NCBI RefSeq assembly: GCF_030013205.1
Contig: NZ_CP122648.1
DNA length: 64,000 bases
Source of the DNA: Escherichia coli
GTDB lineage: Bacteria > Pseudomonadota > Gammaproteobacteria > Enterobacterales > Enterobacteriaceae
Reading direction: 5' to 3' (one strand)
The position numbers were made by a program, and so were the translations under genes. Positions 34,469 to 46,481 of the stretch are shown here, piece by piece. Under the pieces are notes generated by a model that worked only from the letters and a program-made list of their open reading frames with translations, was not told where the DNA came from and ran no database searches. Each line of letters opens with the position of its first letter. Position 1 is the stretch's first letter.

Positions 34469-35662
34469 TTACATCACCGCAGCAAACGCCTTTGCCACAC
34501 GTTGTACATTTGCCGTATTTAACCCGGCGACACACATGCGACCGCTGGCGATGAGATAGACACCAAATTCTTCACGTAGTCGGTCAACCTGAGCGGCACT
34601 TAAACCGGTATAACTGAACATGCCGCGCTGATTAAGCAGATAATCGAAATTGCGTTCTGGCATCTCTGTGCTTAATACCTTCACCAGTTCCTGACGCATT
34701 GCCAGAATGCGAGTACGCATCTCTTCTACTTCCGCCAGCCAGCTGGCTTTCAATGCCTCGTCATTCAGCACTGCAGCCACCACCTGCGCACCAAAATTCG
34801 GCGGGCTGGAGTAGTTGCGGCGAACTGTTGCTTTCAATTGCCCCAGTACGCGGCCTGCAGCTTCGGCATCTTCACACAGAACAGAAAGTCCGCCAACGCG
34901 CTCGCCGTAAAGGGAGAAAATTTTCGAGAACGAATTGCTCACCAGAGCGGGTAATCCAGCGCTGGCAATGGCGCGAATGGCGTAGGCATCCTCTTCCATA
35001 CCGGCACCAAATCCTTGATAGGCAATATCAAGAAATGGGATAAGCTCGCGGGCTTTGAGAATTTCAATCACCGCATCCCACTGGTTATTAGTGAGATCGG
35101 CACCCGTTGGGTTGTGGCAACATGGGTGGAGCAACACAATACTGCGGGCAGGTAATGTTTTTAGCGTCGCCAACAGGTCATTAAAGCGCACGCCGTTAGT
35201 CGCTTCGTCATACCAGGGGTAAGTACTCACTTCGAATCCAGCCCCGGCGAATATTGCTACGTGGTTTTCCCAGGTAGGATCGCTGACCCAGACGCCTGAT
35301 TCCGGGAAGTAGCGTTTCAGGAAATCTGCGCCCACTTTCAATGCCCCTGAGCCGCCAAGGGTTTGAATGGTTGCTACGCGCTGTTGTTGCAGTACCGGAT
35401 GGTCGGCACCAAACAGCAGCGGCGCAATGGCATGGCGATAGCTATTAAGCCCTTCCATCGGTAAATAAAGCGAAGCGCCATGAGGCTGCGCATTCAGGCG
35501 CGCTTCCGCATCCGCCACGGCTTTCAGTTGGGGAATAATTCCGTCTTCGTTGTAGTACAGACCGATACTTAAATTCACTTTGTCGCTGCGAGGGTCTTCT
35601 TTGAAACGCTCCATAAGCGTAAGAATCGGGTCGCCAGCGTAGGCGTCAACTTTTTGAAACAC
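34469..35662 (-). CDS. tyrB: Aromatic-amino-acid aminotransferase TyrB (397 aa, GTG start)
   Basis: N-terminus [20 protein letters not shown] with GTG start at 35662; PLP-lysine region [14 protein letters not shown]. Confidence 0.9.
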
Positions 35663-39566: not shown

Positions 39567-39693
39567 ATAGTTCGGCTGTATGTAGGGTACAGCACGATGA
39601 ATCTGTTAGAGGCGCAATAGTGACAGATTTGATTATCAATTCCTATTTTGTTCTAAGGATAAAACCTTAGGTTGTGATCATCCGCACAATCCC

Positions 39694-39936
39694 TTAGTAA
39701 CGCCAGCGGTCATAACGCTGATATTTAGGCACTTTTGGTGCTTTAATCGCCTTAATAACCCACACCACCGCAATCGCCAGTAGTAACCACGGCAGCAACT
39801 TAATCATCAATGCCAGCATACCGCCGAGGAACATAATGGCCGTCGCCACAACCAGCGCTGCGATAATACCCAGCAACGAAACGCCGGTGACCATCAGCAT
39901 GACAAAAAAGCCAATCACAAAAAGTAGTTCCAGCAT
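39694..39936 (-). CDS. pspG: Phage-shock protein G, PspG (80 aa membrane protein)
   Basis: Start MLELLFVIGFFVMLM; two TM helices; sigma54 promoter upstream. Confidence 0.85.
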   Translation of the reverse strand: MLELLFVIGFFVMLMVTGVSLLGIIAALVVATAIMFLGGMLALMIKLLPWLLLAIAVVWVIKAIKAPKVPKYQRYDRWRY

Positions 39937-39968
39937 GATGCTCTCCCAAATATGAAATCTCTTGCTGG

Positions 39969-39987
39969 CATTACAAGAATCATGCCA
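39969..39987 (-). promoter_or_regulatory. sigma54 promoter of pspG
   Basis: Minus strand reads TGGCATGATTCTTGTAAT (GG-N10-TG, pspA-like -24/-12), ~35 bp upstream of the pspG ATG. Confidence 0.55.
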
Positions 39988-40069
39988 AAAATAATCTATT
40001 GATTTAACAGCAAAACGCCCCGCGACGGTGCGCAGGGCGTGGTGAATTTGACTACTTTTTGGTGAAAAG

Positions 40070-41107
40070 TTAACGCTTATCTGCCACCAGTTTGAGCGCG
40101 TGTTCCAGCACGTTAATGTCAGCACCAGCTTTATGGGCATTTTCACTTAAATAACGCCGCCACTGCCGCGCGCCAGGAATACCCTGGAACAAGCCCAGCA
40201 TATGCCGGGTAATATGGCCAAGATACGTCCCCTGGCTGAGTTCACGCTCAATGTACGGATACATGGCGCGCACTACCGCCACCGGATCGGCATCGGTATC
40301 CGAGGAACCAAAGATCTCTCGGTCTACCGCCGCCAGAATACCCGGATTCTGATACGCTTCGCGCCCGACCATCACGCCATCCATATGTTGCAAATGCGCT
40401 TTTGCCTCTTCCAGCGACTTGATGCCACCGTTAATCGACATTGTCAGATGCGGAAAGTCACGCTTCAGTTGATACACACGCGGATAATCGAGCGGCGGGA
40501 TTTCACGGTTTTCTTTCGGGCTTAACCCCGAAAGCCAGGCTTTACGTGCGTGGATGATGAACATCTCACACTCGCCTTTGCCGGAAACGGTGTTGATGAA
40601 ATCGCAGAGAAATTCATAGCTGTCCTGGTCGTCGATGCCAATACGCGTTTTCACCGTCACCGGAATCGACACCACATCGCGCATCGCTTTCACGCAGTCG
40701 GCAACCAGCTGCGCATTACCCATCAGACACGCCCCAAACATGCCGTTCTGCACCCGGTCAGACGGGCAGCCGACATTCAGGTTGATCTCATCATATCCGC
40801 GCGCTTCTGCCAGCTTTGCACACTGCGCCAGCGCCGCCGGATCGCTACCGCCCAGTTGCAATGCTACCGGATGTTCTTCTTCACTGTACGCCAGGTAATC
40901 ACCTTTACCGTGAATAATCGCCCCTGTAGTCACCATTTCGGTATACAGCAACGTATTGCGGGAAAGCAGACGCAAGAAATAGCGGCAATGTCTGTCCGTC
41001 CAGTCGAGCATAGGAGCAATGCTAAACCGAGAATTCCAGTAAACACCAGTTTTTTCAGGCATCACGCTGGTTTGATTAATTTTTTGTGTTTCATGATTAT
41101 CGTGCAT
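40070..41107 (-). CDS. dusA: tRNA-dihydrouridine synthase A, DusA (5' end adjoins prophage integrase; alternative start at 41062)
   Basis: TIM-barrel Dus signature (..[11 protein letters not shown].., ..IHARKAWL..); 345-aa ORF. Confidence 0.9.
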
Positions 41108-41195
41108 TTTTGAACATTTCAGGCTATTTTTCTCGCGTTAGGTTCCCGCACAGGTTCCCACGTTTTATGGGAACCCGAAATAACGAGGTCGTGTA

Positions 41196-42293
41196 ATGGC
41201 GTACTATAACATAGAGAAACGACTAAAATCCGATGGCACACCACGCTATCGCTGTAATGTGATTATCAAAGAAAAAGGTGTTATCACTTACAGGGAAAGC
41301 AAAACATTCCCTAAACATGCTCATGCCAAAACATGGGGAACACAGAAAGTGATGGAATTAGATCTATATGGCATTCCATCATCAAATGCAGTTGACGGAC
41401 TTACAGTCCGTGACTTACTACACAAATATTTAAATGACCCAAATGCCGGAGGTAAAGCAGGCCGTACTAAAAGATATGTGCTGGAACTGCTTATGGATAG
41501 TGACATCTCCGCGATCAAACTATCTGAACTGACAGAAAATGACGTAATTGAACATTGCAGGCTAAGAAACAACGCTGGTGCAGGTCCAGCAACAGTCAGC
41601 CACGATGTTAGTTATCTTGGCAGTGTTCTGGATGCGGCCAAACCTGTATACGGAATTAATTACACATCAAACCCGGCGAAAAGCGCTCGCCCATATCTAC
41701 TTAAACTTGGTTTGATTGGTAAATCAAACCGTCGTAATCGTAGACCAGCATCTGATGAACTGGACATGCTCATTGAAGGCCTTCAACAACGATCTACTCA
41801 TAAATGCTCAAAAATTCCGTTCGTTGATATCCTCAAATTTTCTGTGTGGTCCTGTATGCGGATCGGAGAAGTATGCCGGTTACGATGGGAAGATCTCGAC
41901 CAGGAACAAAAATCTATACTCGTAAGAGACAGGAAAGATCCACGCAAAAAGGAAGGCAACCACATGAAAGTAGCCTTGCTTGGGGAAGCCTGGGATATCG
42001 TCCAACGACAGCCCAAAAAATCGGAATTCATTTTTCCATATAACAGCACTTCTGTTACTGCAGGATTTCAGAGGGTAAGAAGCAAATTAGGTATTAAAGA
42101 TCTGCGATACCATGATTTGCGTAGAGAAGGGGCAAGTCGCTTATTTGAGGCTGGTTTTAGTATTGAGGAAGTCGCTCAGGTTACAGGGCATCGTTCATTA
42201 AACGTGCTATGGCAGGTATATACCGAACTGTATCCGAAATCTTTACATAATCGTTTTGAAGAGCTCCAAAGGAGCAGAAATAAGACCTCTTGA
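41196..42293 (+). CDS. int: Tyrosine site-specific integrase (dusA-associated type, 365 aa)
   Basis: C-terminal catalytic domain with R..HxxR..Y layout (..MRIGEVCRLRWEDL.., ..RYHDLRREGASR.., ..VTGHRSLNVLWQVY..); located next to dusA 5' end. Confidence 0.9.
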   Translation: MAYYNIEKRLKSDGTPRYRCNVIIKEKGVITYRESKTFPKHAHAKTWGTQKVMELDLYGIPSSNAVDGLTVRDLLHKYLNDPNAGGKAGRTKRYVLELLMDSDISAIKLSELTENDVIEHCRLRNNAGAGPATVSHDVSYLGSVLDAAKPVYGINYTSNPAKSARPYLLKLGLIGKSNRRNRRPASDELDMLIEGLQQRSTHKCSKIPFVDILKFSVWSCMRIGEVCRLRWEDLDQEQKSILVRDRKDPRKKEGNHMKVALLGEAWDIVQRQPKKSEFIFPYNSTSVTAGFQRVRSKLGIKDLRYHDLRREGASRLFEAGFSIEEVAQVTGHRSLNVLWQVYTELYPKSLHNRFEELQRSRNKTS

Positions 42294-42295
42294 CA

Positions 42296-42339
42296 CTGTT
42301 TATCCATACAGTTAAAAATAACACTGTATACAAACACAG
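42296..42339. promoter_or_regulatory. Two tandem consensus LexA (SOS) boxes upstream of the dinI-like gene
   Basis: CTGTTTATCCATACAG (42296-42311) and CTGTATACAAACACAG (42324-42339): both perfect CTGT-N8-ACAG. Confidence 0.8.
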
Positions 42340-42354
42340 TATAGAGGGACTTTT

Positions 42355-42603
42355 ATGCGTATTGAGATCTGCATAGCCAAAGAAAAAATGACTAAAATGC
42401 CAAACGGTGCTGTGGATGCGTTAAAGGAAGAATTAACCCGACGCATCAGTAAACGTTATGACGATGTAGAGGTGATCGTAAAAGCCACCAGCAACGATGG
42501 CCTTTCTGTTACGCGCACCGCCGATAAAGATTCAGCTAAAACTTTTGTTCAGGAAACTCTGAAAGATACCTGGGAGTCTGCTGACGAGTGGTTTGTTCAC
42601 TAA
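42355..42603 (+). CDS. DinI-family SOS-modulating protein (82 aa)
   Basis: MRIEICIAK...GAVDAL.EEL.RRI...[16 protein letters not shown] closely parallels DinI (MRIEVTIAK...ETWESADDWFV). Confidence 0.85.
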
Positions 42604-44382: not shown

Positions 44383-46481
44383 TAGATTAACTCCCCCACC
44401 TGAGCATCAGTCAATGCCTTGTGCCATATTCTGAAATTCCTGACATGACCAAATAAATGACGTAACCCGGCTGTAGTCTGGCCTCCAATACGGATAATTG
44501 CGGTGTTCTGAATATAAGACCATGTGGTTTTTGTTTCGCTGGATATACGCCCGTTACTTACTGAGCACGTAGACTGATCTGACTTTACACGCATCCCCAT
44601 AACCATTTTTTCAAGCGATGCGTTTTCGTTTACCAGTCTGTTAGCTCCTCCAATATCGCAATAAGGAAATCCGTCGTAATCTGCTGAAGAACCGAAGCCA
44701 AGAATAATAGCCGCTCCGGTTTGATGACCGCCGGTATCAAAAACACGCGGTGCTGCATTTGGTGTTTTATTCCAGTTTTTATGAGCCTCAACCAGAACTG
44801 TAAAAGGAAGACTATAAAGATTATTCTTAATTGGAACTGTAACCATATCGCTTGCGCGGGTGCTTGCAGTTGTATCAGTTACAATAAATGACGAAGCACT
44901 TGATCCACCTTCCACTTGTGGAGTTGCGATATCCAGATAGTCTCCAGATGCTGTGTCTGAACCTTTTACTGGAGCGTATTGAACCATCGCACCAATCATG
45001 CTCTCTGTATCTAGTGCAGTAATTGTAGCCTGATAGAAAATCCAACCAGTAGCCTCATCTTTTACAGCCTTTGCAATAATACGATTTGCTGCACCACCAG
45101 TTTTATCAATTACAAGTGTTGATAAATTGAGGTAAGCATCTCCCAAAAAAGTGTAAGTAGAACCATCATGATGTTCAAATCTTAAACGACACCTTATATT
45201 TTCAACATCACTTCTGACACGGCATGAAATGGTCACATATTTTTCATCACCTGTGACATCAAATCCTTTACTGCCAGAAACCGTTACGATACTAATCGCA
45301 CTTGTTTGACCAATAAGAGTATCTTTTACAGTAAATCTACCATAAGTAAAATTAAAAGAATCCGTGGATATTTCTGTGAGTTCCAGATTGCTTGACTTAT
45401 TCCATTTAGATGGATTTGTTGAATTAAGCAGAAGATTAGTTCTTTGCCCCTCAATAAGCAGGCCATCACGTTCAAATCGTGGCTCGTCAATGGCAGCCTC
45501 TGTCAGCACACCAGATTTATTAATATAGGTTGCTTTCGATGCGCGTTTAAACTTTACAACCTTATCGCCAGGCATCGTTATTTCATCATCACCAATAACA
45601 ATCTTTTTATATGACGGCGAAAACCCCGTAATCATATCCAGTGAATCGTTAAATGGTATCCACACATCAGGAAGCGGCTGCAATACTTGTTTATACGGCT
45701 CCGCAGCCTGGCTTGCATACTCTCTGGCTGCATCCTCACTTGCTTTAGCTGCTGTCTGGCTTGCAGCGGATGCTTTCGCCGAGTTAGCCGCCGCAGTCTC
45801 GCTCGCCTTTGCGTTGGTTTCACTGGTTTTTGCAGCTTTTTGACTGTTGGCTGATGCAGTGGCAGAAGAAGCCGCCGCACTTGCAGAACCAGCTGCGGCA
45901 CTCTCGCTTTGGGCTGCTGCATCCTGACTGTTTTTCGCCGCAGTTTCGCTGGCTTTGGCATTCGTTTCGCTGGTCTTCGCTGCCGTCTGGCTGGACTTTG
46001 CGTTAGTTTCACTCGTCTTCGCAGCTTTCTGGCTGTTAGCCGCAGCAGTTGCTGATCCAGCTGCTGAAGTCGCAGAACCGGCTGCCGCGCTCTCGCTTTG
46101 GGCTGCTGAAACCTGGCTGTTTTTTGCTGCAGTTTCACTGGCTTTAGCATTCGTTTCGCTGGTCTTCGCTGCCGTCTGGCTGGACTTTGCGTTGGTTTCG
46201 CTCGTCTTTGCGGCTGTCTCGCTATTTTTCGCGTTGGTTTCTGATTTTTTGGCTGCTGTCGCGTAGTTTGCCGATGCAGTCTTTGAGGTCGCTGCCGCCT
46301 GTGCACTATTAGCTGCATTCGTTTCTGAGGTTTTCGCTGCGTTCTTCGATGATGCCGCTGCAGTTTCGGATTTCTTTGCCGCCGCTGCGCTCTGAGAGGC
46401 GGCTTCGGCGTTGCGTGCCGCTTCTTCCACCATTGCCTCAAAACGACGCAATGCCTCCGGCATGACATCATCTTCCGTCAA
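44382..46481 (-). CDS. Side tail fibre protein (Stf-like) with repetitive Ala/Ser/Thr/Lys-rich N-terminal shaft (699 aa)
   Basis: N-terminal region built of SETNAK / AAKTSETNAK repeats like lambdoid Stf; immediately downstream of J. Confidence 0.8.
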   Translation of the reverse strand: MTEDDVMPEALRRFEAMVEEAARNAEAASQSAAAAKKSETAAASSKNAAKTSETNAANSAQAAATSKTASANYATAAKKSETNAKNSETAAKTSETNAKSSQTAAKTSETNAKASETAAKNSQVSAAQSESAAAGSATSAAGSATAAANSQKAAKTSETNAKSSQTAAKTSETNAKASETAAKNSQDAAAQSESAAAGSASAAASSATASANSQKAAKTSETNAKASETAAANSAKASAASQTAAKASEDAAREYASQAAEPYKQVLQPLPDVWIPFNDSLDMITGFSPSYKKIVIGDDEITMPGDKVVKFKRASKATYINKSGVLTEAAIDEPRFERDGLLIEGQRTNLLLNSTNPSKWNKSSNLELTEISTDSFNFTYGRFTVKDTLIGQTSAISIVTVSGSKGFDVTGDEKYVTISCRVRSDVENIRCRLRFEHHDGSTYTFLGDAYLNLSTLVIDKTGGAANRIIAKAVKDEATGWIFYQATITALDTESMIGAMVQYAPVKGSDTASGDYLDIATPQVEGGSSASSFIVTDTTASTRASDMVTVPIKNNLYSLPFTVLVEAHKNWNKTPNAAPRVFDTGGHQTGAAIILGFGSSADYDGFPYCDIGGANRLVNENASLEKMVMGMRVKSDQSTCSVSNGRISSETKTTWSYIQNTAIIRIGGQTTAGLRHLFGHVRNFRIWHKALTDAQVGELI
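45800..46400. repeat. Nested tandem repeats inside the stf-like gene (189-bp duplication built from degenerate 21-bp units)
   Basis: Near-identical copies with period 189 bp (e.g. GGCTTTGGCATTCGTTTCGCTGGTCTTCGCTGCCGTCTGGCTGGACTTTGCGTT at 45951 and again at 46140); 21-bp sub-periodicity. Confidence 0.85.

Follow-up and report, generated by a model that had tools for sequence, protein, structure and literature searches.

The stretch of DNA analysed here, called the window throughout, comprises 64,000 nucleotides of Escherichia coli (NCBI RefSeq assembly GCF_030013205.1, contig NZ_CP122648.1), in which the chromosomal genes dnaB, qorA, pspG and dusA follow one another in the order that is normal for E. 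coli. The tRNA-modification gene dusA is a 345-aa open reading frame on the minus strand (40070–41107), and next to it, in divergent orientation, lies a 365-aa frame on the plus strand (41196–42293) that encodes a dusA-associated tyrosine integrase (Int); their ATGs stand 89 nt apart, with an intergenic stretch of 88 nt. The first gene after int encodes a DinI-like protein (42355–42603, plus strand; PHROG 189, RecA filament binding protein DinI, E 4e-31) and occupies the same position in phage mEp460. The remainder, from 42604 to 64000 with no strand assigned, is the rest of a prophage as far as it falls within the window, described here from PHROG profiles and from the annotation of a near-identical genome, that of E. 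coli ETEC4079 (NZ_CP122643.1; locus L001). The genome beyond the window was also read from ETEC4079, which is 100% identical over 39600–42400 and which overlaps the window for 24,873 nt, from 39128 onward to its last position, with an A8/A7 indel at 58751 as the sole difference. An earlier sequence-only reading had noted a divergent tyrosine integrase beginning 89 bp from the dusA start codon and a long run of phage genes behind it; its coordinates are correct, both reading frames are confirmed, and in the ETEC4079 annotation phage genes fill the window from 41196 onward.

Int carries the Pfam Phage_integrase domain (PF00589, E 1.5e-20), and an alignment with relatives of 31–89% identity leaves R222, H306, R309, H332 and Y342 invariant, which is the catalytic set R..H-x-x-R..H..Y of tyrosine recombinases. 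The protein is 100% identical to the integrase of phage Lys8385Vzw and 98.6% identical in amino acids to that of mEp460, and it shares 31–56% identity with integrases of Vibrio, Klebsiella, Ralstonia, Burkholderia and Pseudomonas phages; within E. coli, int adjoins dusA in 733 of 5426 complete genomes. In a full-length AF2 model, residues 2–58 form a three-strand sheet and a helix (strands 2–10, 16–26 and 29–38, helix 41–58; pLDDT 75–92 for the block). A Pfam search returned no arm-binding domain in Int, the matches of a fold search came mainly from the core-binding and catalytic domains, and an AF2 model of residues 1–63 alone, built with no alignment, reached a pLDDT of 53 and was discarded.

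Integrases of this kind were defined as dusA-associated integrases (DAIs) by Farrugia et al. (2015, NAR 43:4547; PMC4482086), who described islands by which the 5′ end of dusA is replaced and which have semi-conserved att sequences of 21 bp on either side, who listed mEp460 among the phage members, and who found Escherichia among the over-represented genera. A closely related case is the Stx2d phage phi1720a-02, which inserts 100 bp into dusA of Citrobacter rodentium, with a 7-base core lying within the attB sequence TCCAGTCGAGCATGGGAGC, and supplies an in-frame dusA′; regeneration of its attP requires Int (Balasubramanian et al. 2019, PLoS Pathog, PMC6328086). Experiments have shown, for relatives of the present element, that excision yields a circular intermediate and restores dusA (PMC4482086; PMC6328086). 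The statement in the sequence-only reading that such integrases target the 5′ end of dusA and supply a replacement for it is borne out, in that Int belongs to this published family.

The position of the crossover was read from a four-way alignment of the attL in the window, the attR of ETEC4079 (a near-identical genome, the attR lying outside the window), the attP of mEp460 and SKA5, both of which are free, packaged phage genomes, and the attB of DTU-1, a K-12-like strain in which the site is empty. On the left-hand side of TCGAGCAT, attL has the attB sequence and attR that of attP; on the right-hand side the pairing is exchanged, attL following attP and attR following attB. TCGAGCAT itself (41004–41011, no strand assigned) is the sole block that is identical in all four. 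It is the reverse complement of the Met-Leu-Asp codons of dusA, within the conserved APMLDW motif, so that the att core does lie inside the 5′ coding region of dusA, as had been predicted. The wider segment TCCAGTCGAGCATAGGAGC, at 40998–41016, contains the crossover, corresponds to the published semi-conserved att motif and matches the C. rodentium attB at 18 of 19 positions. The att repeats at the two junctions read TCCAGTCGAGCATAGGAGC at attL and TCCTATCGAGCATTGGTGC at attR, and an attP junction re-formed by excision would read GGTACATCCTA-TCGAGCAT-AGGAGCAATG. In a B2-type lysogen with a single-nucleotide difference in the core, attB is TCAAGCAT and both junctions carry the A, which does not narrow the overlap region.

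The two sides of the core have clearly different relatives. The dusA body (40070–41003, minus strand), which comprises codons 36–345 and the stop codon, is host-derived and agrees with the K-12-like DTU-1 allele at 916 of 934 positions (98.1%), and the 83 nt that precede the break (40929–41011) contain no mismatch to the K-12 allele at all. At 41012 the identity drops sharply: the segment 41012–41107 (minus strand, dusA codons 1–32) agrees with the K-12 allele at 78 of 96 positions (81.2%, 18 mismatches), with the SKA5 attP at 96 of 96, with the mEp460 attP at 92.7%, and with the B2-type allele of E. coli, argued below to be ancestral, at 39.6%. The match to the attP of free phages indicates that the first 32 codons of DusA are phage-supplied; these codons, and everything upstream of them, are on this evidence phage DNA, and the module stands in frame with the host body of the gene. 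The earlier estimate of 30–40 phage-derived codons is thereby narrowed to 32. The host's own 5′ end, which was expected to reappear as a repeat at the far end of the prophage, is present at attR in ETEC4079, with a core-to-core distance of 32,705 bp. There it is annotated by PGAP as a 105-nt 'tRNA-dihydrouridine synthase' pseudogene without a C-terminus (L001 34581–34685), and beyond it the normal chromosomal continuation resumes with DUF2713, zur, yjbJ, dinF and lexA.

It might be argued that the 5′ end of dusA is merely a divergent native allele and that the prophage lies upstream of an intact gene, since megablast against empty-site genomes aligns to 3 nt beyond the dusA start codon and the gene appears uninterrupted. 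That continuity, however, is an artefact that arises because phage module and K-12 5′ end are about 81% alike, and it conceals the abrupt change at 41011, where 18 mismatches in 96 nt succeed a flawless 83. The same segment is moreover present in free phage genomes, and the native 5′ end exists as a separate fragment at attR. Contradicted by both the four-way comparison and the identity break, a native origin of these codons has almost vanishing likelihood, and we rejected it.

What the window holds, then, is with a probability of roughly 0.93 the attL of a defective lambdoid prophage of the mEp460/phi1720a-02 type, integrated site-specifically in the 5′ coding part of E. coli dusA. How it came to lie there is shown by the sequence comparison. 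The phage attP bears a look-alike of the dusA 5′ end, situated directly upstream of int and divergent from it, and strand exchange by the tyrosine recombinase took place within the shared TCGAGCAT. The exchange joined the host dusA body to the 32-codon phage module and its upstream region, which keeps a 345-aa DusA reading frame intact, and it carried the 5′ end and promoter of the host off to attR, 32.7 kb away. By analogy with lambda Int, the core-binding and catalytic domains of Int would act at the core and its N-terminal domain may bind putative arm-type sites on both arms; excision would presumably be directed by the product of an excisionase candidate near attR, a PrtN-family reading frame outside the window (L001 32798–33079; PHROG 1300 'excisionase', E 1e-39). 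The gene dusA would now be transcribed from a promoter supplied by the phage. The divergent intergenic region (41108–41195), which is phage-derived, near-identical to the attP of free phages and equivalent to the P′ arm, must hold the int ribosome-binding site together with the presumed promoters of int and dusA; a consensus promoter scan of 41000–41260 gave no convincing sigma-70 promoter for either gene.

This intergenic region also contains a cluster of short repeats. The sequence-only reading had described a palindrome of GGTTCCC and GGGAACC with a third, direct GGTTCCC copy at 41141–41175, and these are present as described: two direct copies on the plus strand at 41141–41147 (P′1) and 41153–41159 (P′2), the second placed 12 bp after the first, and an inverted copy on the minus strand at 41169–41175 (P′3; GGGAACC on the plus strand), each of them a putative arm-type Int site. 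Relative to the int ATG, the cluster occupies the stretch from 56 to 22 nt upstream. The heptamer occurs 8 times in the 64-kb window, close to the 6.1 copies expected from shuffled sequence, and 3 of these 8 are packed into 35 bp, so the cluster is far from chance. In the mEp460 attP, copies of the motif are found on both arms and are distinct in sequence from the core: the P arm carries GGTTCCC and GGCTCCC, 11 bp apart, at 61 and 50 bp to the left of the core, and the P′ arm carries copies 137, 149 and 165 bp to its right, which gives the attP a span of about 233 bp in all. The P-arm copies lie at 34521 and 34532 in the ETEC4079 locus (L001) and at 2432 and 2443 in that of mEp460 (L004).

A comparison across relatives adds to this picture. 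A scan of viral contigs with Int yielded only relatives of at least 89% identity, which are too close for covariation, and the comparison was instead based on matches in phage collections and on dusA loci from a genome scan. In relatives with an Int of 89% identity, site 2 reads GGCCCCC and sites 1 and 3 are exact, amid spacers and flanks that have diverged. Four dusA-adjacent integrases of about 70% identity, from a Pseudocitrobacter MAG, Shimwellia, an unclassified Enterobacteriaceae MAG and Rosenbergiella, have two direct copies 12 bp apart and one inverted copy 20–70 nt upstream of int, and their motifs differ from GGTTCCC (CAGCACCCC, GTACACCA and AGGACACC); the inverted third copy stands at the P′3 position in all four, again with the different motif. 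Among more distant relatives, lineage-specific repeats occur at the same position in Klebsiella, Vibrio, Ralstonia, Burkholderia and Pseudomonas phages, and two Pseudomonas phages have paired P-arm copies 11 bp apart. The layout, with its lineage-specific motifs, is kept in four genomic and five phage relatives. It appears from these alignments that DAI attP sites have a conserved design, with a P-arm pair 11 bp apart and, near int, a direct pair 12 bp apart joined by a single inverted copy, the motif itself varying with the lineage of the integrase.

The sequence-only reading had left it undecided whether the cluster would be bound by the integrase or by a regulator, and the comparative evidence backs the former part of that suggestion, although the sites remain putative ones. 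Suppose that the cluster served chiefly as an operator, controlling transcription from the divergent int and dusA′ promoters through a phage regulator or through autorepression by Int. One would then expect to find it exactly where it is, between the two divergent genes where the int promoter should lie, and its position relative to int would be kept across relatives, as is the case. An operator would not, however, be expected to have copies of the same motif beyond the core, on the P arm and far from any int promoter, and the P-arm pairs recur in distant relatives, as arm sites should. A mainly regulatory role is thus unlikely, with the proviso that operator and arm-site functions are compatible with each other. 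It is far less probable still that GGTTCCC-N9-GGGAACC owes its existence to an RNA or DNA hairpin, such as a terminator or a structure in the int 5′-UTR. Structure prediction does give a stem of 8 bp and a loop of 7 nt (centroid −12.6 kcal/mol), and the inverted pair is kept, with changed sequence, in the relatives of about 70% identity; yet the folding energy of the region is at the level of shuffled sequence (z 0.07), a T-run is absent after the stem, the GGCCCCC of site 2 in the 89% relatives breaks the centre of the stem at the same time as sites 1 and 3 stay exact, and the direct copy and the P-arm copies are left unexplained. The z value, the broken stem and these unexplained copies led us to discard the hairpin. 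The reading that is supported is that the cluster fits integrase arm-type sites, with Int as their putative ligand; in the searchable literature we found no description of an arm-motif layout for the DAI family.

The prophage that adjoins this attL runs about 9.7 kb past the window to attR. Up to the end of the window it contains genes for tail fibres, gpJ, tail assembly, lysis, Q, RusA and a methylase, fragments of the tape-measure and terminase genes, accessory genes that are dispensable for phage growth, and replication and recombination genes. The tape-measure gene is a truncated C-terminal fragment (52465–53250), which matches only the C-terminal part of the PHROG profiles, and 35 nt away from it lies a truncated terminase-large fragment (53285–54079) that matches an internal part of its profile. 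A prophage of KC-Dl-1 with an identical Int measures 46,014 bp, compared with 32,705 bp here, and has a full set of head and tail genes, a comparison which indicates that the element in the window has lost about 12–13 kb, including the portal, capsid and tail-tube genes. Since head genes and part of the tail genes are gone, the prophage cannot produce particles; it is defective, or cryptic, and could at most excise. The int gene, both att sites, a gene for a LexA-family (CI-type) repressor and the excisionase-family gene all appear intact, and for this reason excision may still be possible.

The host side of the junction has a history of its own. Of the 5426 complete E. coli genomes, all but one (5425) have one of two types of dusA 5′ end. 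The K-12 type (4302 genomes, about 79%) encodes a DusA of 345 aa that starts with MHGNSEMQ, its first 32 codons reading MHGNSEMQKINQTSAMPEKTDVHWSGRFSVAP, and is followed by DUF2713. The B2 type (1123 genomes) encodes a DusA of 331 aa that starts with MPAESHTVYPAYRFSI, and zur lies 155 nt upstream. The two types part exactly at the DAI core. The B2-type N-terminus is also found in E. albertii, Citrobacter, Enterobacter, Lelliottia, Leclercia, Kluyvera, Kosakonia and others, the tight spacing between dusA and zur is shared by E. albertii and by the representative of a second Escherichia species (L093), and DUF2713 adjoins dusA in none of 80 other species. The presence of the B2-type N-terminus in other genera and the absence of DUF2713 there indicate that the B2-type 5′ end is the ancestral one.

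Where the K-12 type came from is suggested by its relatives. Its 96-nt module is 81–83% identical to the dusA′ modules borne by phages, which are only 72–75% identical to one another, and at 33% it is unrelated to the B2 type. These observations make it somewhat probable that the K-12-type 5′ end, that is, the 32 codons and the upstream region with DUF2713, is a fossil attL left by an earlier dusA phage, an estimate that we attach jointly to this origin and to the conservation of the attP layout across DAIs described above. The case is weakened by the fact that K-12 lacks an int remnant, arm sites and an ancestral attR fragment, and that DUF2713 is absent from phage genomes: upstream of K-12 dusA, tblastn gave nothing significant for an int remnant and blastn gave only a 107-nt module, with no arm sites; no ancestral dusA 5′ fragment was found between DUF2713 and zur in K-12; and a comparison of the K-12 upstream region, DUF2713 included, with phage genomes gave a 98-nt dusA′ module as its sole match. 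Capture of the host module by a phage, for its part, would explain the similarity, though neither the position of the boundary nor the derived state of the K-12 type. A fossil attL is, in our view and with the same modest degree of assurance, the most economical account, and the present prophage would then have replaced a K-12-type 5′ end once again. If this is true, the junction entered by the prophage was itself of phage origin, and dusA has had its 5′ end replaced on more than one occasion.

Overall, the observation made by the sequence-only reading is confirmed, and the evidence supports its interpretation as correct. The phenomenon itself is already known, given that Int is 98.6% identical to that of mEp460, a named DAI phage, and that phi1720a-02 has been shown to integrate into dusA; it is the well-documented behaviour of a known integrase family, and only the layout of the arm sites and the proposed fossil origin of the K-12 5′ end go beyond the searchable literature. 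That dusA is a host–phage chimera and that the prophage is cryptic are useful mainly as correct annotation. The likely arm sites chart attP in concrete terms for integrases of a very widespread family, and such a map would aid the prediction of island boundaries or the use of these integrases as tools. As for the proposed fossil end, the N-terminus and promoter of DusA in the reference strain E. coli K-12 may be derived from a phage, which bears on how the start codons, N-terminal extensions and regulation of DusA are read in this model organism.

Comparison with known systems leads from the distant to the near. Lambda offers the model of a heterobivalent integrase, with arm-type sites P1, P2 and P′1–3 in its attP, but lambda Int has only about 17–19% sequence identity to the Int of the window, and in the present element attP is placed upstream of int and includes a coding sequence that mimics the target gene; binding of Int to the arm motifs is putative. 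The phages mEp460 (JQ182728), SKA5, Lys8385Vzw and PhiR47_1 share int, dinI and the attP module at 97.5–99% nucleotide identity, as well as a lambdoid gene order; mEp460 differs in being viable and 44.5 kb long, whereas the prophage studied here measures 32.7 kb from core to core and has its tape-measure fragment abutting its terminase fragment. With phi1720a-02 it shares about 95.5% nucleotide identity over the dusA′–int region and the insertion into dusA some 100 bp in, but that phage is intact, inducible and Stx-converting, whereas the present element, within the window, is devoid of stx, and its head genes and some of its tail genes are gone. The paper that defined the DAI systems (PMC4482086) makes no mention of arm-type sites and does not address the dimorphism between K-12-type and ancestral dusA 5′ ends in E. 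coli. With the systems it describes, the element has in common a tyrosine integrase that adjoins the 5′ end of dusA and is divergent from it, a replacement 5′ end, semi-conserved att repeats on both sides and a crossover in the conserved coding region for APM(L/M)DW, and between those systems and the element in the window there is no essential difference.

Escherichia coli carries two mutually unrelated dusA 5′ ends, and the point at which they diverge is exactly the integrase crossover site, as was seen when window positions 41012-41107 were compared with a K-12-like locus (L002, 4413-4508), a B2-type locus (L003, 4412-4466) and outgroup loci (L092-L111). The B2-type end, found in 1123 genomes, is common to E. 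albertii and many genera of Enterobacteriaceae, a distribution that marks it as the ancestral form. The K-12-type end occurs in 4302 genomes and is 81-83% like the phage-borne replacement modules (dusA′); together with DUF2713, it looks like the fossil of an earlier dusA-specific insertion.

Insertion into the ancestral type of dusA is seen in E. coli KC-Dl-1 (locus L173, positions 3562 and 49576), where a full-length prophage with an identical integrase protein sits in a B2-type gene and DusA has gone from 331 aa to a chimera of 345 aa. In the B2 type, the attB core is TCAAGCAT, with a single mismatch to the phage core, TCGAGCAT, and both junctions of the KC-Dl-1 lysogen carry A at the mismatched position.

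The prophage of the window is itself cryptic, measuring 32.7 kb as compared with 46.0 kb in an intact relative with an identical integrase. At 52465-54079, a C-terminal tape-measure fragment lies only 35 nt from a fragment of the terminase large subunit, an arrangement that implies a deletion of ~12-13 kb that removed head genes as well as proximal tail genes. The 699-aa fibre/head-spike gene, marked incomplete by PGAP in the near-identical genome ETEC4079, contains an internal direct repeat of 246 nt (45789-46223; 83% identity) that codes for Ala/Ser/Thr-rich repeats (AAKTSETNAKSSQTAAK...).

Accessory, moron-like cargo separates the packaging remnant from the Q/late region; it comprises an LPS core heptose(II)-phosphate phosphatase (55058-55633, +), a tRNA-Gly (57201-57275, -), an AraC-family regulator (57693-58544, -) and a DUF6731 protein (58716-59657, +). 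The sole difference from ETEC4079 over 24.9 kb is a run of A8 rather than A7 at 58751. This run falls in the 5′-terminal part of the DUF6731 ORF and shifts where that ORF seems to start, giving 313 aa for the window sequence versus 261 aa as annotated in ETEC4079. Outside the window, the genes adjoining attR were read from ETEC4079 (L001, 32798-34327): just inside attR, a PrtN-family gene matches a PHROG excisionase family and is a candidate excisionase, and it is followed by three small genes in reverse orientation, one of which codes for a protein with a Panacea domain, a domain of toxin-antitoxin antitoxins.

Diverged dusA-associated integrases were compared for arm motifs in int-dusA intergenic regions (L103, L121, L139 and L162) and at L006, L007 and L088-L091. 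In every case, two direct copies of a lineage-specific motif of 7-10 bp lie 11-12 bp apart just upstream of int, usually with an inverted third copy beside them, and in two Pseudomonas phages a pair is also found across the core, on its other side. Judged from these sequences, the dusA-associated integrase family seems to share a conserved arm architecture of attP.
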